Of a stretch of DNA of 64,000 bases, positions 8,647 to 56,700 are shown one piece after another. Positions within the stretch are counted from its first letter, which is position 1. The number at the start of each line of letters is the position of its first letter. The stretch spans positions 26,731-90,730 of the forward strand of contig JBGAWP010000001.1 in assembly GCA_044227505.1 (NCBI GenBank), in the 5' to 3' direction. The notes below the pieces were generated by a model that was not told the DNA's origin, made no database searches, and worked only from the letters and a program-made list of their open reading frames with translations. The stretch is from Chitinophagales bacterium. GTDB lineage: Bacteria > Bacteroidota > Bacteroidia > Chitinophagales > BACL12. A program made the translations under genes and the position numbers.

Positions 8647-8756
8647 GGGATCGCGGATTTTGGATCGCGGATTTAAGGGGGATTTCGCGGATTGCGCGGA
8701 TTTTGGTTTTGGATCGCGGATTTTATGGGGATTTCGCGGATTGCGCGGATTTTGGG
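8647..8756. repeat. CGCGGATT-word tandem repeat (two units of about 45-49 bp plus a partial unit)
   Basis: GGATCGCGGATTTaagggGGATTTCGCGGATTGCGCGGATTTTGG at 8662-8706 recurs nearly identically at 8711-8755. A partial GGATCGCGGATTTT lies at 8648-8661. Confidence 0.9.
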
Positions 8757-24600: not shown

Positions 24601-25050
24601 AGCAGAACTTTTTAGGGTTAAAAAATCGTGTATGTCTGCTTAAGGAAGGGAACCTAAAGGTGAATTTAATTTTTGAATTTTGCAAATAAAAAGTGTAAGT
24701 GAACGGTATAAGGTGATGGATGGAGGAGGAAAGGATTGTTTTGCAAGAGTTTAATGAGCTTTATAGCCGGGAAGACGGAAAGGGCGGGAAGGATACGGGA
24801 AGAAGTTGAAGTAGTGTGTAAGTTTAATTTACTCCATGATGTTTTTAAGATTAAATAGGAAAATATTATTTAAGTTTTGCGATAATTTAAGTCCAGCTCC
24901 ATGTGTCTTTTTTTGCCACGAAGACACCAAGGGCACGAAGATCACACGAAGAAATTTATGTAGGCTGAAAGTTTATTCTTACACCATAAAACTTTATAGT
25001 TTGAATTGGAATTAATAAAGTTGTACAATTCGATCTACAATAAAAATTAT

Positions 25051-25199
25051 CCTTCGAATCCACAGAGATTCCCTTCGGGTAACACTGCGGGGACACTTGG
25101 GATGCAGAACTCAGAACCCAGAACTCAGAACTCATCCTCCGAATCTACAGCGTTTCTTTATCCTACTTCCTATTTCCTACTTCCTATTTCCCATTCCCC
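25051..25199. repeat. Composite intergenic repeat: CGAATCCACAGAG hairpin module plus GAACTCA and CCTACTT/CCTATTT heptamer arrays
   Basis: CCTTCGAATCCACAGAGATTCCCTTCGGGTAACACTGCGGGGACACTTGGG lies at 25051-25101. Four GAACTCA/GAACCCA heptamers lie at 25107-25134. CCTACTT/CCTATTT units lie at 25162-25199. Confidence 0.9.
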
Positions 25200-26333
25200 C
25201 TAATCAATCCCCTGTGTCATTTTACGCACAATTTTTAGTTCACTGAAAAACTCCTTAGCAATAATCCGGAAGAATGCATACACCGGCATAGCGGCGATCA
25301 TTCCGGGAACTCCAGCGAGGGAACCAAATACTAAAACCACAAAAAACACTTCTAATGGATGTGCTTTAATTGAATTGGAATAAATAATGGGTTGCGAAAT
25401 AAAATTATCGATGAGTTGTACTCCCTGGAAGAGAATAAATAATTGAATCAGCATTGGAGTGATATCAAAATTGGGATCCACACTTAAATTCGTGGTAATG
25501 CCGATGAACATACCGAATAACATTCCGATAATTGGTCCGATATAGGGAATGATATTGATGATACCCGCAAATAAAGCGATGAGCCAGCTGTTTGGCCCGA
25601 AACCGAGTGCCAGTAAGCCTCCTGCAATTAAAATAAATACAATAAGCGATTGAATGATCAACCCCACAAAATATCGTGTGAGATATTTTTTACTCGATTG
25701 TAAAATGCGTTTTGCGTTGGGTTCAAATTTTGTAGGAGTGAGTATCATCACGATATTATAAAATAATTTTTCATCCCGCAAAAAGAAAAATGAAATAAAA
25801 GTGATGGAAAATAAAGCAACAATTATATTGCCGAGTCCGCCCAAAATATTATTAAAAATATGGGTGATGGATGTAACATTTATCCAGTTCTTTAAATTAT
25901 CATTAATGATCTGATCAACAGATTGTTGCGGTACATTGGGATCCTGAAAACGCACTACCAAAGAGTCGAGGGCTTCCATTTGTGCTTGTAATCCCATCGC
26001 AACTTGTTCAGTATTAATATTGCTGATATTATTTGTTTGTTCAACAACCAATGGTGTAAACATTTTAACTATTCCGAAAATAATTCCGAATAAAACAGAT
26101 ATGGTAATTAAAGAAGAAAGTGCATTAGGGATCTTAAATTTTCCAATCTTAAAATGTTCTAGAAAATCGCAAATGGGTTTTCCGATAATGGAAATAATTG
26201 CGGCGATGATAAAATAAAATAATATTGTTGTGATCTGCAAGATCAGCCAAACAACTCCAAATACTAAAGCAAGGGTGATGAGTATTAATAAAGTTGTTCG
26301 AATGATATTGTTGTTGGACCAAGGTGTGGGCAT
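25200..26333 (-). CDS. AI-2E family transporter (PerM-like permease)
   Basis: It is a multi-TM protein with GIINIIPYIGPIIG, typical of the family. I chose the ATG at 26333 (MPTPWSNNN...). The track start at 26414 is a TTG whose extra 27 codons are read out of the intergenic repeat. Confidence 0.8.
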   Translation of the reverse strand: MPTPWSNNNIIRTTLLILITLALVFGVVWLILQITTILFYFIIAAIISIIGKPICDFLEHFKIGKFKIPNALSSLITISVLFGIIFGIVKMFTPLVVEQTNNISNINTEQVAMGLQAQMEALDSLVVRFQDPNVPQQSVDQIINDNLKNWINVTSITHIFNNILGGLGNIIVALFSITFISFFFLRDEKLFYNIVMILTPTKFEPNAKRILQSSKKYLTRYFVGLIIQSLIVFILIAGGLLALGFGPNSWLIALFAGIINIIPYIGPIIGMLFGMFIGITTNLSVDPNFDITPMLIQLFILFQGVQLIDNFISQPIIYSNSIKAHPLEVFFVVLVFGSLAGVPGMIAAMPVYAFFRIIAKEFFSELKIVRKMTQGID

Positions 26334-26490
26334 TGGATAAATTTTCGTGAAGATAAGTCTTTTGAAGATTCGAAGGGAGAGGAATCGAACCTGCTTGCTA
26401 ACAGTGTCGGGCAAGGGGAGAAGGGGAAGGGTCTAAGGGGGAGTAGGAAGGAATGGGTGGGGAAGGGTTGAAAAGTATTAATCTTATAAA

Positions 26491-26810
26491 AATATCGAAT
26501 AAAGAACAAGGAATAAAGAACATTGATCGGATCGACAGCCCGGGAGATATTGCTCCGCAGTGAATCGGGATTAATATCCAATAATAATCAAAAAATAAAA
26601 AATATTAATCGGACTGACAACCCTGAAGATTTTTCTCGGTAATAAATCCTTATAATATCGAATAAAGAACAAGGAATAAAGAACATTAAACGGATCGACA
26701 GCCCGGGAGATTTTCCTCCGCGGTGAACCAGGAGGAATATCAAATAATAATCAAAAAATAAAAAATATTAATCGGATCTACAACCCGGAGTTTATTCCTC
26801 CGAAGTGAAC
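26491..26810 (+). repeat. Tandem duplication of a 163-bp unit, each unit built from two related sub-elements of about 80 bp
   Basis: AATATCGAATAAAGAACAAGGAATAAAGAACATT starts at 26491 and again at 26654. Each unit contains two cores resembling ATTAATCGGATCGACANCCCGGAGATTTTCCTCCGNNGTGAAC. One core has an AATATCGAATAAAGAAC... leader and the other an AATAATAATCAAAAAATAAAAAAT leader. Confidence 0.9.
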
Positions 26811-26840
26811 TCAGAACCCGAACTACTCCATAAACTTTGA

Positions 26841-26935
26841 GCTCCGAATCCACAGAGTTCGCTGCGCGTAACACTGTGGGGAAACGCTTGGGGTTGGTGA
26901 ACTCAGAACCCTGAACTCAGAATTCAGAACAGAAC
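26841..26935. repeat. Second copy of the CGAATCCACAGAG hairpin module plus a GAACTCA heptamer array
   Basis: GCTCCGAATCCACAGAGTTCGCTGCGCGTAACACTGTGGGGAAACGCTTGGGG lies at 26841-26893. GAACTCAGAACCCTGAACTCAGAATTCAGAAC lies at 26899-26935. The module order matches 25051-25134. Confidence 0.9.
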
Positions 26936-26970
26936 ATAGTTCGAAATTAATGTTTCAAGAGAAAAAAATC

Positions 26971-30750: not shown

Positions 30751-30760
30751 ATTATAAATT

Positions 30761-30922
30761 GTCAATAGTCATTAGTCAGGAGTCATTAGTCAGGAGTGAG
30801 GACGTAAATTTTAAATCGGACGTAAACTCATTACTCATAACTCATTTGGAGAATCGTAAGCAATAATCCGGCTCGGAACATACTCACCACTCACCACTCA
30901 CCACTCACCACTTCCCACTCAC
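30761..30922. repeat. Heptamer-phased degenerate arrays filling the ArsS / AhpD-like intergenic spacer
   Basis: GTCAATA GTCATTA GTCAGGA GTCATTA GTCAGGA GTGAGGA lie at 30761-30802. GGACGTAAA occurs twice. AACTCAT TACTCAT AACTCAT lie around 30825-30846. TACTCAC followed by (CACTCAC)3 CACTTCC CACTCAC lie at 30881-30922, ending at the stop codon of the upstream gene. Confidence 0.95.
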
Positions 30923-34547: not shown

Positions 34548-37277
34548 ATGGACAAGTTTTCATACATAGCAAACGCGGAACCTCAATATATAGAGAGTTT
34601 ATATCAGAATTATAAATCCGACCCGGCAAAAATTGATGGGGAATGGAAAAAGTTTTTCGAAGGATTTGACTTCGCGCAACAAAATTTTTCTTCTAACGGA
34701 CATTACGAAAATATCAGCTCATCAAATTTGGCGGCGGAATTAAAGGTGTACAATGCAATTTTGGCCTACCGCGAAAAGGGTCATTTGATCTCCAAAACAA
34801 ATCCCCTGAAACCGCGCAAAGACAGAAATGCACAGTTGAAATTGGAGCAATTGGGATTTAGGGAAAATGATCTGACCAAAAAATTTGGCGCAGGTGTGGC
34901 AGTGGGTATGGAAAATGCCACTTTGCAGGAAATTTTAGCGCATCTCGAAAATTGTTATTGCAGAAGTATCGGTTTTGAATACGACTATATTATCGATCCC
35001 ATTGAAAAAAAATGGTTTCAGGATAAAATAGAAATTAACGGAAAAAATATCACTTTTTCTGTTGATCAAAAAAAACGAATTCTAAAAAAATTAAATGATA
35101 CTGTTGTTTTTGAACAGTTTCTCGATAAAAAATATGTAGGTCAAAAAAGGTTTTCATTGGAGGGGGGAGAAACAACGATCCCGGCATTAGATGCAATTAT
35201 TACAAAGGGTGCGGCAATGGGAGTGGAGGAATTCGTTTTCGGAATGGCTCACCGTGGGAGATTAAATGTACTGGCAAACATACTTGGAAAAACATACGAA
35301 CAAATATTTAATGAATTTGAAGGAACAGCAATTCCGGACACTACGATGGGTGATGGCGATGTGAAATATCATCTTGGTTATTCATCGCAGGTGGAAACAA
35401 ATTCAGGAAAAGAAGTACATTTAAAATTAACACCAAATCCATCTCATTTGGAAGCAGTTAATCCCGTAATGCAGGGATTTGTAAGAGCTAAAACAGATGT
35501 TTTATACAATGAGGATTGGGATAAAATAATGCCTATAACTATTCACGGTGATGCTGCCATTGCGGGACAAGGAGTTGTTTACGAAGTATTACAAATGAGC
35601 AATCTGAAAGGTTACAGAGTTGGTGGAACTTTACACTTTGTAATTAATAATCAGATAGGATTTACAACTGATTTTGATGATGCTCGCACTAGTAATTATT
35701 GCACGAGTTATGCTGCAACAATTCAGGCTCCGGTAATTCATGTAAATGGTGATGATGCGGAAGCTGTAGTATTTGCCTGTGAATTAGCAGTGGAGTATCG
35801 CCAGGAATTTAATAAGGATATTTTTATTGATATGTTGTGTTACAGAAAACACGGACATAATGAAGGGGATGACCCGAAATACACACAACCTGCTCTATAT
35901 AAATTGATTGAAAATAAATTAAATCCACGAGAAATTTATGTGCAGAAATTATTGGCGAGTCACGATATTGATAAACAACTCGCAACAGAAATGGAAAAAG
36001 ATTTCTGGAATGAATTACAAAGCAGATTAGATCTCACCAAACAAAAACCACTTAAATATCAATATCAGGCTCCGGAAGAGGCGTGGAGAAAATTGAAAAA
36101 GATAATTGATATCGCAGTAGACTTTAGTAATACGCCGGAAACAAAAGTAGACAAAGAAAAAATTAAACAGGTTACGGATAATATGTTTAAAGTACCTGAA
36201 GGTTTTGTGAAGTTGAAAAAAATTGAAAAGTTATTCGAAACAAATAAAAAACTTTTAGCCGAAAATAAAATTGACTGGGCCCTAGCTGAATTAATTGCTT
36301 ACGGAACTATTTTATTGGATGGACAAGATGTTCGCATGAGCGGACAAGATGTAAGAAGAGGTACTTTTAGTCACCGTCATGCAGTATTGCGTGAAGAAAA
36401 TACAAATGAGGAATATATTCGTTTAAATCACCTCGCTGAAAAACAAGGTAAATTCAGAATTTATAATTCTTTATTGAGCGAATTTGGAGTGTTGGGATTT
36501 GAATTTGGTTACAGTCTTGCCTGCCCCGACCCATTGGTAATATGGGAAGCGCAATTCGGTGATTTTAATAATGGAGCGCAAACAATTATTGATCAGTTTA
36601 TATCAGCAAGTGTGAGCAAGTGGCAGCGTATGAGCGGACTGGTTATGTTGTTGCCTCATGGATATGAGGGGCAGGGCCCGGAACATTCCAGTGCTCGTTT
36701 AGAGCGATTTTTACAATTATGTGCCGAAGGAAATTTAATTGTTGCGAATATTACTACCCCAGCAAATTTTTTCCACATATTAAGACGACAACTTGCCTTT
36801 GATTTTCGCAGGCCTCTGATCATCATGAGTCCGAAAAGTTTGTTGCGTCACCCTTTGGTGCAATCTCCATTAACTGAATTATCTGAAGGTAAATTTGAAC
36901 CGCTGATAGGAGATGAGTATGCTGATAAGAAAAAAGTAAAACGCGTTATTTTATGCAGTGGAAAAATTTATTACGATCTGTATGAATATCAACAAAAAAA
37001 TGAAAGAAAGGACATCGCAATTTTACGGGTGGAACAATTATATCCTTTTCCGATGACCAGATTAAAAGAAGAATTAAATAAATATCCCGAGGCAGAATTA
37101 ATGTGGACGCAGGAAGAACCGAGAAATATGGGAGCATGGTTTTATATCTGGAATTTAATGGGCACTATGATCAAACAAAAGGTGAGCAGAAAATCAAGTG
37201 CATCACCGGCAACAGGTTTTGCGAAGATTCATGCTCAGGAGCAAGCGGATATTGTGGAGCAGAGTTTTAAGTTGTGA
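34548..37277 (+). CDS. sucA: 2-oxoglutarate dehydrogenase E1 component
   Basis: It has 909 aa. The N-terminus is SYIANAEPQYIESLYQNYKSDP. The ThDP-enzyme core includes GMAHRGRLNVLANILGK and HGDAAIAGQGVVYE. The C-terminal part includes WEAQFGDFNNGAQ. Confidence 0.95.
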   Translation: MDKFSYIANAEPQYIESLYQNYKSDPAKIDGEWKKFFEGFDFAQQNFSSNGHYENISSSNLAAELKVYNAILAYREKGHLISKTNPLKPRKDRNAQLKLEQLGFRENDLTKKFGAGVAVGMENATLQEILAHLENCYCRSIGFEYDYIIDPIEKKWFQDKIEINGKNITFSVDQKKRILKKLNDTVVFEQFLDKKYVGQKRFSLEGGETTIPALDAIITKGAAMGVEEFVFGMAHRGRLNVLANILGKTYEQIFNEFEGTAIPDTTMGDGDVKYHLGYSSQVETNSGKEVHLKLTPNPSHLEAVNPVMQGFVRAKTDVLYNEDWDKIMPITIHGDAAIAGQGVVYEVLQMSNLKGYRVGGTLHFVINNQIGFTTDFDDARTSNYCTSYAATIQAPVIHVNGDDAEAVVFACELAVEYRQEFNKDIFIDMLCYRKHGHNEGDDPKYTQPALYKLIENKLNPREIYVQKLLASHDIDKQLATEMEKDFWNELQSRLDLTKQKPLKYQYQAPEEAWRKLKKIIDIAVDFSNTPETKVDKEKIKQVTDNMFKVPEGFVKLKKIEKLFETNKKLLAENKIDWALAELIAYGTILLDGQDVRMSGQDVRRGTFSHRHAVLREENTNEEYIRLNHLAEKQGKFRIYNSLLSEFGVLGFEFGYSLACPDPLVIWEAQFGDFNNGAQTIIDQFISASVSKWQRMSGLVMLLPHGYEGQGPEHSSARLERFLQLCAEGNLIVANITTPANFFHILRRQLAFDFRRPLIIMSPKSLLRHPLVQSPLTELSEGKFEPLIGDEYADKKKVKRVILCSGKIYYDLYEYQQKNERKDIAILRVEQLYPFPMTRLKEELNKYPEAELMWTQEEPRNMGAWFYIWNLMGTMIKQKVSRKSSASPATGFAKIHAQEQADIVEQSFKL

Positions 37278-37287
37278 GGGAGGAGTG

Positions 37288-37418
37288 GCAGTCGCAGTCG
37301 CAGTCGCAGTCGCAGTCGCAGTCGCAGTCGCAGTCGCAGTCGCAGTCGCAGTCGCAGTCGCAGTCGCAGTCGCAGTCGCAGTCGCAGTCGCAGTCGCAGT
37401 CGCAGTCGCAGTCGCAGT
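37288..37418. repeat. Perfect hexanucleotide microsatellite (GCAGTC)21 plus a partial unit
   Basis: I counted it directly: 126 bp of uninterrupted GCAGTC at 37288-37413, then GCAGT. It starts 11 nt after the sucA stop and ends 64 nt before the sucB start. Confidence 0.98.
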
Positions 37419-37481: not shown

Positions 37482-38750
37482 ATGATAATTGAATTAAAAG
37501 TGCCGACAATTGGCGAATCTATAAATGAGGTTACACTTTCGAAGTGGCTTGTAAGTGATGGAGATATTGTTACTATTGATCAATCGCTATGTGAATTTGA
37601 AAGTGATAAGGCAACCTTGGAATTTCCGGCAGAGAAAGCAGGAAAAATTACTTTGCTTGTTAAAGAAGAAACAGAATTAAAAATAGGTGATGTAATTGCT
37701 ACCTTGGATACAGATGCTGTGCCCGCAGCAACAGCTGAAACAAAAAAGGAAGAAAAAGTTATAAAAGAAGAAGTGGTAGAAAAGAAAGAGGTAAAGGAAG
37801 GAAAGATTGTTGAAACAGTAAAAGAAGAAAAGAAAATTGCAGCAGAGGAACACGCCCCAGTTATTTCTCCATTAGCATCCACAATTGCAAAGGAAAATAA
37901 AGTGGATATTCAAAAATTATCAGGTACCGGAAGTGGCGGAAGAATTACGAAGGAAGATGTATTAAATTACATTAAAAGTGGAACTGATGGGAAGGAAATT
38001 GTAAAAGGTTTGCGAAAAAATTTACGCACACAGCATGAAGAAAAAGTATCCAAACTCCGCAAAACAATTGCAAAAAGATTGGTAGGAGTTAAAAATGAAA
38101 CCGCCATGCTCACCACCTTTAATGAAGTGGATATGAGCGCAATTATGGCAATTCGCGATAAACACAAAGTGAATTTTGAAAAGAAATTCGGAGTTGGATT
38201 GGGATTTATGTCGTTTTTTGTAAAAGCATGTTGTAATGCATTACAGGAATTTCCTAGTGTAAATGCATATTTTAATGAGGATACCATACTATTTAATGAC
38301 TATTGTGACATATCCATTGCAGTATCTACTCCAAAAGGTCTTGTAGTACCCGTAGTGCGCAATGCCGAAAGTATGAGTATGGCCGACGTAGAATTAACAA
38401 TTAAATCATTAGCAGTTAAAGGGCGTGACGGAACTTTGAGCTTGGAAGAAATGCAAGGCGGTACCTTTACTATAACCAATGGAGGAGTATTCGGATCATT
38501 AATGAGCACACCAATCATCAACGCACCACAAAGTGCGATTTTGGGCATGCATAAAATTCAGGAAAGGCCTATTGCTTTAAACGGACAAGTTATAATAAGA
38601 CCAATGATGTATCTTGCATTGAGTTATGATCACAGAATTATCGATGGAAAAGAATCGGTGAGTTTTTTGGTGAGGGTGAAGGAACAATTAGAAAAGCCGG
38701 AGAATTTATTGTTTGGTTTTGATAATATTGAATTGTTGCTGGAGTTATAA
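37482..38750 (+). CDS. sucB: Dihydrolipoyllysine-residue succinyltransferase (2-oxoglutarate dehydrogenase E2)
   Basis: The lipoyl domain is [18 protein letters not shown]. An E/K/A-rich linker and an E3-binding segment follow. The catalytic motif is [11 protein letters not shown]. Confidence 0.95.
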
Positions 38751-47312: not shown

Positions 47313-47565
47313 GGGACGCGGGAATCGGGACACGGAAATCGGGAAAACAAAGGATGGAGAAAAAGAGGATCGCGGATGACGCTGATTTAGCGGATTTAAA
47401 AGGATAAATTTTTTTAATAATGCAGATTAATTATTAATTAGAATATAGAGTTTTCAATTTACGATAAGTACAGTCCGTCGCGGCGGACGAGCCATCTTTT
47501 AACAACGGACTTTAGCCCGTGGGTTAATAAAAAGAGGAACCTGACTAACGCGGTCAGCAGGCAGG
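47313..47565. repeat. Composite intergenic repeat block (GGGAATC heptamers, CGGATTT words, GTCC..GGAC hairpins, divergent CCTG..CAGG palindrome)
   Basis: GGGACGC GGGAATC GGGACAC GGAAATC GGGAAAA lie at 47313-47347. GATGACGCTGATTTAGCGGATTTAAAAGGATAAATTT lies at 47375-47411. The hairpin GTCCGTCGCGGCGGAC is followed by CATCTTTTAACAACGGACTTTAGCCCGTGGG at 47493-47523. CCTGACTAACGCGGTCAGCAGGCAGG lies at 47540-47565. Confidence 0.9.
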
Positions 47566-47782
47566 CGCTAAAGACGCAAATTTGGCGGATTTAAAAGGGT
47601 TTTTTTTGAATATTGAATTTTTAATAGCCTAGAAAATATTTGTCCTAGAATAAATTAAACCCCGGTAGGGGTGGCATTATTATAGAAAAGATGCAATTAA
47701 ATTAACCGTAAACCCCGTTAGGGGTGACATTATAACCCAACCTACAAAAAATGATATTTTAATAACTCAAATTGAATTTACG

Positions 47783-48517
47783 GTGAAATATAATTTTAAT
47801 AAATATCTAATACTGTTTTTGATCATTGGATTTTTTCCTGTGATTGTTGATGCGCAAACTAATTCGAGAGATTCATCGATATTAAAAGCTACAAGCATTG
47901 CCAAACGTGTTATTAGTGCAATGGGTGGCGAAGAAAATTTTGAGCAGACCAAATATATAGGCTGGACATTTTTTGGGAGTAGAAAATTAATTTGGGATAA
48001 GGAAAATGATAGGTTGAGGGTTGATTATCTTAAAAAGAAATTAACAATTATTACGTCTTTAAATTCTGATGAAACTAAATTATATATGGATGATATCGAA
48101 ATCACTAATACAGATTCCCTTATCAAATATAGTACAAGAGGAAAAAGAATTTGGGCAAACGATTCCTATTGGCTCCTGATGCCTTTTAAATTGTTGGATG
48201 AAGGGGTGAATTTAAAATTTGTAAAAGACACACTTTTAAATACTGTAAATACCTCCATCCTCGAAATGACCTTTGAAAATGTTGGTTTTACCCCTGAAAA
48301 TAAATATTGGATCTACGTTGATATGAATTCCTATTTAATAACCCAATGGGATTTCTACAATACCTATACTGACATAACACCCGAATTTTCCAATACCTGG
48401 GGCGACTACAAAAAATACGATAAATTACTGATCTCCGGTGACCGCGGCGTAGAAGGAAAATTGGAAAATATTTATGTGGTGGATGAAATGCCTTCAGCAA
48501 TATTTGAAACGAAATAA
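47783..48517 (+). CDS. Hypothetical secreted protein (244 aa)
   Basis: It has a GTG start and a signal peptide (KYLILFLIIGFFPVIVDAQ). I recognise no motif. Related repeat modules flank it on both sides. Confidence 0.5.
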   Translation: MKYNFNKYLILFLIIGFFPVIVDAQTNSRDSSILKATSIAKRVISAMGGEENFEQTKYIGWTFFGSRKLIWDKENDRLRVDYLKKKLTIITSLNSDETKLYMDDIEITNTDSLIKYSTRGKRIWANDSYWLLMPFKLLDEGVNLKFVKDTLLNTVNTSILEMTFENVGFTPENKYWIYVDMNSYLITQWDFYNTYTDITPEFSNTWGDYKKYDKLLISGDRGVEGKLENIYVVDEMPSAIFETK

Positions 48518-48605
48518 GATTTGGGATGAGGGTTTCGGTACAAGTGAAACAGGGGAACAAATAAATGAATAAAAAAGGGAACCCGCCAGTGGGCGAACAG
48601 GAGCT

Positions 48606-48978
48606 GATGACGCTGATTTGTCGGATTTAAAAGGATAAATTTAAAGGGGATATAATTAGAAATTTGAGATGAATTTTTCGGCTATAAATAATCAAAAAGT
48701 CCTGAAAGGACGGCACATCTTGTAACAACGGACTTTAGTCCGAGGTAACTAGTCCAAAATGTGACTCAGGACACAGGAAACAGGACAACTTTGACTCAAC
48801 TTGAAAATTTATAATGCCAAGTAAAATTTAAATTAGCATATAAAATTTTCAATCAAAAACGAACTCCCCTTTTTCAACCTTTCCCAACCCTTCCTTCCTT
48901 TTTTAACCTTAGAACCTTACCCTTCGAATCTTCTCCCTTCTCCCTTCGAATCTTCCATGACTTCTCCCTTCGAATCTT
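48606..48978. repeat. Composite intergenic repeat block (second copy of the 47375-47523 modules, CAGGACA heptamers, CCCTTCGAATCTT x3)
   Basis: GATGACGCTGATTTGTCGGATTTAAAAGGATAAATTT lies at 48606-48642. The hairpin GTCCTGAAAGGAC is followed by CATCTTGTAACAACGGACTTTAGTCCGAGGT at 48716-48746. CAGGACA CAGGAAA CAGGACA lie at 48767-48787. CCCTTCGAATCTT occurs at 48920, 48942 and 48966, and the last copy overlaps the response-regulator stop codon. Confidence 0.9.
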
Positions 48979-55690: not shown

Positions 55691-55945
55691 AATGAGTAAT
55701 GAGTTATGAGCCTGCCTGCCGACTGCGTCAGCGTCAGGCAGGTAATGAGTGTGATCCGGGTAGGATTATGCTCACCACTCACCATTTACGTAATAGTCGC
55801 AGTCTCAGTAAGCAGTTTTAAGCCAGCTGAGTCTTACTTCGCATTCACGTATGAGTAATGAGCCTGCCTGCCGACTGCGTCAGCGTCAGGCAGGTAATGA
55901 GTTTGATCCGAGTAGGAGTAAGCTCACTACTCACCACTCACTATT
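55691..55945. repeat. Two direct units of about 95 bp, each carrying AATGAGT words, a 32-nt GC-rich palindromic element and CACTCAC words
   Basis: Unit 1 spans 55691-55790 and unit 2 spans 55850-55945. The identical 32-mer CCTGCCTGCCGACTGCGTCAGCGTCAGGCAGG lies at 55711-55742 and 55863-55894. Next to them a 13-bp-stem hairpin at 55936-55973 is formed by inverted CACTCAC-type words. Confidence 0.95.
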
Positions 55946-55989
55946 CACAAAGGGTGAGTGGTGAATAGTGAGTAGGGAGTGACTCTATC

Positions 55990-56700
55990 ACCGGAAGATA
56001 TACCTTCGAACCAAGCTGAATAAATAACCAATAACAATCAAAAAATAAAAAACATTTATCGGATCGACTACCCGGAAGTCCCTCCTTCGAAGGGAACCTA
56101 TAGAACAATAATATCGAATACCGAACAAGGAATAAAGAATATTAATCGGATTGACATCCCGGATGATTTTCCTCCGAAATGAAACTTTCAATGTAAACGA
56201 AAAATATACTCCCCTATAGGGTAGGGGGCCCTTCGGATCGACACACTGGAGATTTTCCTCCGTAATAAACCCCTTCAACTCCTTCAACCAATCTCACCTC
56301 AAAGTTTCAAGTAGAATCGGAATTCCCTCTGTAATGAACCTTGCGAACCCAATTTAATATCGAACCTGCCTGCCGGTAGGCAGGTAAAGAACAAGGAATA
56401 AAGAACCTGTCTGCCGGCAGTCGCCAGGCAGGCATCTAACATGTCGACAATCCTGAAGATTTTCCTCCGCAACAAACCAAATTAATATCCAATAACAATC
56501 AAGAAATAAAAAATAACAATCGGATTCTCTCCCGGATGATTATCCTCCGTAACAAACCCCTTTAACCCCTTCAACTCCTTCAACCAATCTCGCCTCATGG
56601 TTTCAGGTAGAACCGGAGTCTCCCTCCGTAATGAACTCAGAACCTGCCTGACGCTGACGCAGTCGGCAGGCAGGCCCCGAACCCAGAACTGAAACATGCA
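55990..56700. repeat. Array of the approximately 80-bp modular element (same family as 26491-26810) with nested GC-rich palindromes and an approximately 295-bp higher-order repeat
   Basis: Element copies lie at about 56027-56098, 56107-56186, 56231-56271, 56355-56477 and 56482-56558. The unit CCTTCAACTCCTTCAACCAATCTC(A/G)CCTCA..GTTTCA.GTAGAA.CGGA...CCCTC.GTAATGAAC occurs at 56269-56340 and 56566-56636. Palindromes lie at 56365-56384, 56406-56432 and 56643-56674. Confidence 0.9.

Follow-up and report, generated by a model that had tools for sequence, protein, structure and literature searches.

Between a gene for an ArsM-like S-adenosylmethionine (SAM) methyltransferase and one for an AI-2E family transporter, in DNA of a Chitinophagales bacterium (contig JBGAWP010000001.1), lies a spacer of 637 nt (26334–26970) that contains a tandem array of short noncoding repeats. 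Here, "the window" denotes the whole 64,000-nt stretch that was analyzed, and comparison contigs carry L numbers. The limits given for the spacer follow from the start of the AI-2E gene, which is most likely at 26333; the corresponding 377-aa protein has an exact match in 11 other contigs. For the 324-aa methyltransferase, the closest homologues (83–86% identity) carry the NCBI name ArsM. Our best reading of the array is that it represents a new family of a known kind, namely the modular intergenic repeats exemplified by bacterial interspersed mosaic elements (BIMEs) and short tandemly repeated repetitive (STRR) sequences.

Structure of the array between arsM and the AI-2E gene

The array consists of four direct units, A1-B2-A3-B4, arranged head to tail. 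Each is ∼82 nt in length, and together they span 26491–26817 with a higher-order period of 163 nt. Tandem Repeats Finder (TRF) reports a period of 163 for 26491–26786 (1.8 copies, 91% matches, score 506) and a period of 82 for 26491–26810 (3.9 copies, 72% matches), while an ungapped repeat comparison yields a 156-nt pair at a spacing of 163 with 85% identity. A 76-nt repeat family has six members, starting at 26489, 26571, 26652, 26734, 56021 and 56108. The 31-mer of the A leader has exact matches at 26491 and 26654 and a match with three mismatches at 56110; the 24-mer of the B leader has exact matches at 26580 and 26743 and matches with two mismatches at 56030 and 56491; and the core box pattern has six matches in the window. 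For all three patterns the count expected in shuffles is 0.00, and every pattern or profile match in the window falls on the + strand. Pairwise identity is 89% for A1/A3, 76% for B2/B4 and ∼70% for A versus B units. The TRF results, repeat pairs and leader matches thus support the original prediction, which described a higher-order unit of 163 bp that pairs an A-type with a B-type version of one element of ∼80 bp. At ∼26817, the tail of B4 (GTGAACTCAGAAC) runs into flanking GAACTCA heptamers.

Each unit comprises a 41-nt AT-rich leader and a GC-richer core of ∼41 nt. The leader is built of six degenerate 7-mers of AAY type and ends in ATTAATCGGA. Its self-match is 0.60 at lag 7 and 0.58 at lag 14, values reached by 0/2000 shuffles, and no periodicity was detected in the core by the self-match test. 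The 7-nt intergenic periodicity that characterizes heptamer tandem repeats of the STRR type is therefore a property of the leader only; the flanks carry period-7 TRF arrays. When 14 units, drawn from the window and from L002, L003, L020 and L029, were aligned, invariant and near-invariant columns were found almost exclusively in the leader and ATTAATCGGA. Between the two 163-nt units of the array, 1 of 75 leader positions differs, compared to 27 of 88 core positions (Fisher p = 1.2e-7). Leader and core also occur apart, as seen from leaderless cores at 56 kb.

Other loci, other strains and relatives

The same repeat family was predicted to recur on the + strand at ∼56 kb (55.99–56.64 kb), and it does (Table 1). 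There the flanking genes, encoding a TonB-dependent receptor and a NifU-like protein, both lie on the + strand, while both neighbors of the 26.5-kb array lie on the − strand; hence the units are sense to their neighbors at 56 kb and antisense to them at 26.5 kb, again as predicted. In the window, the only further unit positions returned by a profile search are 56023, 56110, 56233 (a core alone), 56385 (an interrupted unit) and 56484. Unit B10 and the 9-mer run and core remnant behind it form a ∼290-nt higher-order duplicate of 56233–56345. No target-site duplication accompanies the two palindromes nested in the interrupted unit (56356–56482). Weak core remnants near 55985, 56311 (∼56311–56340) and 56608 (∼56608–56637) were read by eye; their profile E values, 2.2–8.3, fall above the E ≤ 1 limit of a later profile rescan. 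The cluster is reproduced in four assemblies, with a 9-nt indel as the sole difference. Strain variants exist at this locus. In L031 (1–150), the end of an IS4-like transposase gene (IS, insertion sequence) abuts the nested palindrome at window position 56370, and in L029 (1780–2040) and L033 (100–400) a glycyl-tRNA synthetase gene takes the place of the upstream TonB receptor gene, with a breakpoint near 56004.

Table 1. Repeat units, modules and neighboring genes in the window
Feature	Position	Strand	Remarks
Unit A1	26491–26572	+	leader AATATCG AATAAAG AACAAGG AATAAAG AACATTG ATCGGA, then core TCGACAGCCCGGGAGATATTGCTCCGCAGTGAATCGGGATT
Unit B2	26573–26653	+	leader AATATCC AATAATA ATCAAAA AATAAAA AATATTA ATCGGA, then diverged core
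Unit A3	26654–26735	+	opens second 163-nt higher-order unit; 89% identical to A1, first 34 nt the same
Unit B4	26736–26817	+	76% identical to B2; leader differs at 1/41 positions
Leaderless core remnant CACCGGAAGATATACCTTCGAACC	55985–56012	+	weak, profile score
Units B5 (56023–56109) and A6 (56110–56192)	56023–56192	+	repeat family, pattern and profile matches
Module P (CAATGTAAACGAAAAATATACTCCCCTATAGGGTAGGGGGCCC), then leaderless core (56233–56272)	56193–56272	+	core profile E = 3.8e-5
Interrupted A-type unit	56356–56482	+	two nested CCTGCC..GGCAGG palindromes, 56365–56384 and 56407–56433
Unit B10	56484–56566	+	then 9-mer run and core remnant to ∼56641
AI-2E family transporter gene, 377 aa	25200–26333	−	Pfam PF01594; downstream neighbor of array
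Left spacer part	26334–26490	+	AI-2E 5′ region, CTTGC..GCAAG hairpin module, G-rich heptamer-like runs, AAAAGTATTAATCTTAT
Right spacer part	26818–26970	+	GAACTCA/GAACCCN heptamers; CCACAG..CTGTGG hairpin module at 26843–26895
ArsM-like SAM methyltransferase gene, 324 aa	26971–27945	−	upstream neighbor of array
CCTGCC..GGCAGG palindromes	47541–47565, 55711–55742, 55863–55894, 56365–56384, 56407–56433, 56643–56674		in the window

Degenerate pattern scans were run against 596 Gb of species-representative genomes, Joint Genome Institute (JGI) metagenomes and viral contigs, collections that do not include the window's own genome. The genome scan found one locus, in the Bacteroidota metagenome-assembled genome (MAG) L002, where units in the order core-B-A sit between a J-domain protein gene and a convergent gene for a sigma-70 family sigma factor. 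The JGI metagenomes also gave one locus, L003, where CAGAACT heptamers come after two B-like units; the viral contigs gave none, and blastn against plasmids and phages returned nothing relevant. A further contig, L035, was reached through homologues of the J-domain protein (87% identical protein). Its orthologous spacer bears a tandem block of ∼177 nt, in which a B unit is followed by a P module, with a CCCCTATGGGGTAGGGG palindrome, and then by a core that has a short leader. The window segment 56110–56275 (A6, P and core) has the same block order as the two tandem blocks of L035, at 75–77% identity. The family is thus present in at least two further metagenome-derived Bacteroidota genomes (L002 and L003), and L035 may or may not represent a separate organism. 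In L002, L003 and L035 the gene contexts of the units are unrelated to those in the window. Period-7 arrays occupy 9.8 bases per kb in the window (25 TRF rows, in spacers), 13 in L002, 29 in L003 and 0 in several relatives.

The leader-plus-core organization, for which genome-wide copies had been proposed as a check, is thus seen at 56 kb and in L002, L003 and L035, although leader and core can occur separately. Comparison of module order at 26.5 kb, at 56 kb, in L002 and in L035 shows A and B leaders, cores, P modules and nested palindromes in varying arrangements, which is the makeup of a mosaic intergenic repeat of the BIME-like kind. Block duplications come in three sizes: 163, ∼177 and ∼290 nt. 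Literature searches turned up no description of this repeat family.

Several observations concern the spacer between the J-domain protein and sigma-factor genes. In relatives, the orthologous spacer measures 423, 624, 854, 858 or 1237 nt and contains different repeat families; in those with 854–1237 nt it is filled by an unrelated tandem family of ∼190 nt whose copy number varies by sample. Among L037 (2539–3775), L038 (2510–3363) and L039 (2366–3223), for instance, the J-domain protein is identical and the spacer varies by ∼380 nt, a difference that corresponds to a change in copy number of this T-rich repeat. We also considered L043 as an example of an empty site and rejected it, as a gene other than that for the sigma factor lies downstream and adapter-like sequence is present at the end of the contig. 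A partial ORF (open reading frame) at that end (2360–2929) starts with VRSRGLGDVYKRQ, which resembles translated sequencing adapter, and the end may be chimeric.

The window encodes proteins with tails of the type IX secretion system (T9SS), and its ArsM is 83–89% identical to proteins of Chitinophagales MAGs. In four sets of relatives, the syntenic arsM–AI-2E spacer measures 127, 185, 72 and 53 nt. We read these four spacers and found no unit, and nhmmer finds none at those loci. Given the short, unit-free spacers of the relatives, the array is a gain in the window's lineage. Two of the four (L004 and L009) contain a canonical terminator with hairpin and T-run, e.g. CATCCTCCGGAAGTTCCGGAGGATTTTTTTT.

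The original prediction had allowed that the duplication might be an assembly artifact. This is not the case: in independent metagenome assemblies from the European Nucleotide Archive, all 637 nt of the spacer recur unchanged in L015 and L016 and with a single substitution in L017. These three contigs are ∼99.5% identical to the window overall, and the comparison contigs carry the identical AI-2E protein and span the whole spacer. L020 holds a diverged allele of the same layout, with 19 substitutions, all within A1 and B2, and 0 indels. The short-read contig L001, with identical ArsM, ends 128 nt past arsM, which matches the known effect of repeats on short-read assemblies. We make no claim of purifying selection on the array, as strain mismatches cluster within recombination tracts and exact protein identity was the criterion for choosing the contigs. 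Elsewhere in the window, a block of AGTCATT/AGTCAGG heptamers (30753–30833) is replaced in L015 and L016 (5415–5581), otherwise 99.5% identical, by an unrelated segment of 165 nt. The mismatch tracts between these strains suggest recombination.

Tests for function and alternative explanations

Each unit had been predicted to end in a shared core with CCCGGAG and CCTCCG elements. The similarity in sequence holds, but neither RNAalifold, nor the pair count, nor folds of single cores could demonstrate a hairpin. RNAalifold predicts 0 pairs for the 14 aligned units. The candidate CCCGGAG/CTCCG stem is paired in 70% of cells, compared to 69.5% in shuffles, and its covariation is not above that of slid registers. 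Eleven single cores fold with z-scores from −1.8 to +1.4, into structures that differ among cores. For the array as a whole, folding energies relative to shuffles give z = −0.98 on the + strand and z = −2.37 on the − strand. Over the whole window Rfam gives 0 matches at gathering score, and at E ≤ 10 only noise is seen in the spacer. Neither strand of the arsM–AI-2E spacer contains the Bacteroidetes −7 box, TAnnTTTG; the 56-kb spacer has one, 23 nt before the start codon of the nifU-like gene, as expected of a promoter. Sigma-70-like sites are not enriched (14 in the scan versus 9.1 ± 3.4 expected). An intrinsic terminator consists of a G+C-rich stem with a U-run immediately behind it, in sense orientation; a terminator-like scan returns one weak site, in B4 on the − strand, versus 2.4 expected in shuffles, and the other units fail.

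These results bear on a role at the RNA level. The NsiR1 locus upstream of hetF in Nostocales, reportedly described by Ionescu et al. in 2010, is a tandem array of small-RNA genes. Like our array, it consists of head-to-tail spacer repeats, of ∼60–80 nt; unlike here, a promoter, a terminator and a conserved fold come with every NsiR1 repeat. With no TAnnTTTG box, sigma-70-like matches at shuffle level, no fold and no Rfam match, a tandem small-RNA array of this sort is not supported. The broader idea includes, besides NsiR1-like genes, a module of the untranslated region (UTR) on the − strand, which is sense for arsM and AI-2E: short hairpins followed by a U-rich tract in each unit could replace a lost intrinsic terminator or stabilize the mRNA. 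Units on the − strand do show hairpins with U-rich tails, and one of these (26787–26773, then ATTAATATTT) passes the terminator-like scan. Moreover, the − strand folds somewhat more stably than shuffles, and canonical terminators are present in the two relatives' spacers noted above, with no comparable one found in the window. However, the U-tract begins ∼7 nt after a weak stem with G-U pairs, the orientation relative to transcription is reversed at 56 kb and in L003, z-scores of single cores center near 0, no unit has a −7 box on either strand, and a consensus structure, covariation and an Rfam family are all lacking. We regard an RNA-level element as very doubtful.

Mobile elements provide another possible explanation. 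REP (repetitive extragenic palindromic) sequences, their REPIN doublets and the associated RAYT transposases make up known systems of short, clustered extragenic repeats (Bertels & Rainey 2011, PMC3116915; Di Nocera et al. 2013, PMC3733652), in which a GTAG or CGTC tetranucleotide tags one end of the palindrome (PMC3733652). Clustering of short extragenic repeats is common to REPs and to the family studied here, but our units have no conserved 20- to 40-nt palindrome, no such tag and no inverted-doublet arrangement. The conserved imperfect palindrome of that length is lacking by RNAalifold, stem pairing and core folds alike, and the 14-unit alignment has no conserved GTAG or CGTC column, GTAG occurring only on the − strand of B4. 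On these grounds REP/REPIN was rejected as a class. A miniature inverted-repeat transposable element (MITE) was rejected as well: an inverted-repeat scan of 26334–26970 gives short internal pairs only, with none at the ends of units or array, and the flanks differ. A GTAG-type REP, AAACCCCGTAGGGGTGGCAT, is nonetheless found in the clade. In L009 (4853–6110) a RAYT-like Y1_Tnp gene has 56-nt tandem arrays of this REP to one side and inverted copies to the other, i.e. a REPtron, and in the window the REP lies at 47658–47677, with a second copy at ∼47711–47730.

A transposase encoded elsewhere in the genome, e.g. of the RAYT/Y1 type, could in principle copy leader and core, as a nonautonomous MITE- or REP-like element, into heptamer-rich spacers, with the tandem array as a by-product of repeated insertion or of the processing of transposition intermediates. 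Consistent with this, the window has units at two or more loci and other genomes have them beside unrelated genes, relatives have none in the syntenic spacer, REP/RAYT systems exist in the clade, with one REP type present in the window itself, and the small CCTGCC..GGCAGG palindromes insert precisely and without target duplication, even within a unit. On the other hand, neither the array nor its units have terminal inverted repeats or target-site duplications, the palindrome and tag of REPs are missing, tblastn with the Y1_Tnp protein of L009 finds no match in the 64-kb window, and module combinations vary in a way that does not fit one defined element. Active transposition of this sort is, like the RNA role, one of the weaker rivals, and we consider it unlikely.

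Several other candidates were dismissed. A coding role is ruled out by unit length, which is not a multiple of 3, and by stops in every frame; the 98-aa ORF at 26285–26581 (−) is a by-product of the repeat. The array is not a CRISPR (clustered regularly interspaced short palindromic repeats) locus, as the stretches between leaders are mutually homologous, where a CRISPR would have unique spacers between identical repeats, and no cas-like gene is present among the neighbors examined. Nor is it a replication origin, there being no skew switch and no dnaA or dnaN context. Nothing here points to a new gene, RNA or defense system.

On balance, we think it reasonably probable that the array arose by tandem amplification of a noncoding, modular, dispersed repeat specific to a heptamer-rich lineage of Chitinophagales-like Bacteroidota, and that it is most likely neutral or selfish. 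Neutral or selfish upkeep is favored because structural and regulatory signals are lacking, insertions are tolerated, orientation is inconsistent, the neighboring genes are unrelated and relatives lack the array. In the order of events that we infer, leaders would arise as slippage-type heptamer arrays, like those in other spacers of the genome, and leader-core blocks would then be copied to new spacers by a copy-and-paste or recombination route. At 26.5 kb, an A-B dimer would have been duplicated once to A-B-A-B, through unequal crossing-over or replication slippage between homologous units, and subsequent changes would have gathered almost only in the cores.

Certain data argue against this explanation. 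The contrast in divergence between leaders and cores is not what simple neutral decay after duplication predicts, and the A leader has a near-identical counterpart in L002, where 44 of 46 positions agree. Leader conservation could stem from constraint, e.g. on a candidate binding site, or from homogenization by gene conversion. The stronger conservation of leaders than of cores is thus left unexplained by tandem amplification and neutral upkeep, and it keeps alive the idea of a DNA-binding site. In addition, we saw neither terminal inverted repeats nor target duplications nor a linked transposase that would mark a route of dispersal. One caveat is that the sample is small, only ∼20 units from roughly four genomes.

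If the leaders, with their AAYAWWR heptamers and ATTAATCGGA, were bound by a nucleoid-associated or other DNA-binding protein or by a regulator, then transcription or the local topology of the DNA would be modulated from four phased sites, placed upstream of the AI-2E promoter. Conservation of the leaders within the array (1/75 versus 27/88) and across genomes, near-invariance of ATTAATCGGA in the 14 units, and an orientation that is not fixed relative to genes, consistent with a role at the DNA level, all favor such cis-acting sites. Yet one A leader tolerates two palindrome insertions, leaderless cores are present, the neighboring genes (arsM/AI-2E, TonB receptor/NifU, J-protein/sigma factor) are unrelated, the same gene pair lacks the array in close relatives, and no candidate binding protein has been identified. 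Hence, we judge protein-binding sites to be a rather improbable basis for the array. There is likewise only a slim chance that a conserved leader beside a fast-changing core reflects design, in which case the repeats would belong, as recognition sites or as small transcripts, to a system of heptamer-rich Chitinophagales that has yet to be described. Such a system might be a repeat-dependent regulatory or topological device, or the repeats might be substrates of a copy-and-paste machinery akin to the cyanobacterial phenomenon of heptamers and small dispersed repeats (SDRs).

Relation to known repeats and significance of the array

Amplification of a modular dispersed repeat, the explanation we prefer, invites comparison with several known systems. 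Cyanobacterial STRR heptamer arrays with nested SDRs were reportedly described by Elhai et al. in 2008. These too combine intergenic tandem heptamers with very small, hairpin-type inserts, nested in each other and in other repeats, and they too are lineage-specific, variable between relatives and without a linked transposase. In the window, CCTGCC..GGCAGG palindromes are found inside heptamers and inside the A unit, as in that system. The host, however, is a Chitinophagales-like member of the Bacteroidota rather than of the Nostocales, the unit shares no sequence similarity with the cyanobacterial elements, and what is amplified here is a leader-core composite of ∼82 nt, in blocks of 163 to 290 nt, whereas an SDR is an insert of 21–27 nt.

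Intergenic heptamer direct repeats have been cataloged in Beggiatoaceae, Cyanobacteria and a few Bacteroidetes (MacGregor 2015, PMC4679880), and some Bacteroidetes spacers contain several kinds of them (PMC4679880). They share with the present repeats the period of 7 and the intergenic location, and closely related genomes with the same gene neighborhood have shorter, repeat-free spacers (PMC4679880). The heptamers themselves differ, being AAYAWWR, GAACTCA and ACTCACC here compared to TAACTGA (PMC4679880). Also different is that the heptamer run here is fused to a nonperiodic core and repeated with it as a higher-order unit, and that placement directly upstream of start codons is not seen.

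Modular repeats of other lineages offer further parallels. In BIME-2 of Escherichia coli, palindromic units of the Y and Z2 types alternate, joined by fixed linkers and marked by a GTAG tag. Like the family described here, it is a mosaic of few module types with two alternating subtypes, and the dimer is tandemly amplified in extragenic spacers. BIME units, though, are true palindromes that alternate in orientation, while ours are all direct, with a palindrome that is weak and unconserved. The BOX elements of pneumococci have the modular form boxA-boxB(n)-boxC, bounded by defined A and C modules, and adopt stable folds. They are likewise modular and intergenic, modules vary in number and can be absent, and function is uncertain in both cases; there is no sequence relationship, and neither the stable fold nor the defined A and C bounds are seen here.

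Other repeats surround the array. In the left part of its spacer, AAAAGTATTAATCTTAT looks like a truncated leader end, and in the variant contigs L029 and L033 a similar module lies ahead of the unit cluster. The AI-2E gene is flanked on either side by a direct copy of one hairpin-plus-heptamer module (25052–25135 and 26843–26930); the module has the form TCCGAATCCACAG..CTGTGGGGA, followed by CAGAACT/GAACTCA heptamers. The spacer between the AI-2E and protease genes (24601–25199) is also enlarged, measuring 599 nt versus 167–217 nt in relatives. The CCTGCC..GGCAGG palindromes, 20–32 nt in length, are inserted into runs of heptamers, as a rule directly behind GAAC or GAG. The palindrome word CAGGCAGG occurs 9 times, compared to 0.68 expected, and these palindromes look like an SDR-like family of mini-insertions.

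Repeats of other kinds were noted as well. A near-perfect hexanucleotide microsatellite, (AGTCGC) × 22.5 with 99% matches, occupies 37284–37418; it starts 7 nt past the stop codon of the gene for 2-oxoglutarate dehydrogenase E1 (34548–37277), and the next ORF is at 37482. Direct repeats of ∼150 nt at 47372–47522 and 48603–48745 (also 47567–47606), 84–93% identical, flank the ORF at 47783–48517, and motifs related to them, ATCCGC..CAGCGTCATC, build the ∼190-nt tandem family of L037–L039. At 8658–8755, two copies of a 49-nt tandem repeat (95–96% identical), with sub-repeats of GGATCGCGGATTT type, adjoin a terminator-like hairpin downstream of an OmpA-family gene.

Taken together, intergenic DNA built much as in Nostoc, from arrays of heptamers, mini-palindromes nested in them and tandem blocks of higher order, exists also in an uncultured lineage of Chitinophagales. 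Spacers are inflated ∼5- to 10-fold by the repeats; the array enlarges the arsM–AI-2E spacer from ∼50–185 nt to 637 nt and occupies a spacer in which two relatives bear a canonical terminator. Repeats of this sort break short-read contigs, and they coincide with points of rearrangement and IS insertion between strains. The array offers both homology and tolerated sites for rearrangement and for insertion of an IS or a palindrome. With different repeat families in the same spacer of relatives, these genomes provide a natural series in which the origin and turnover of intergenic repeats can be studied.

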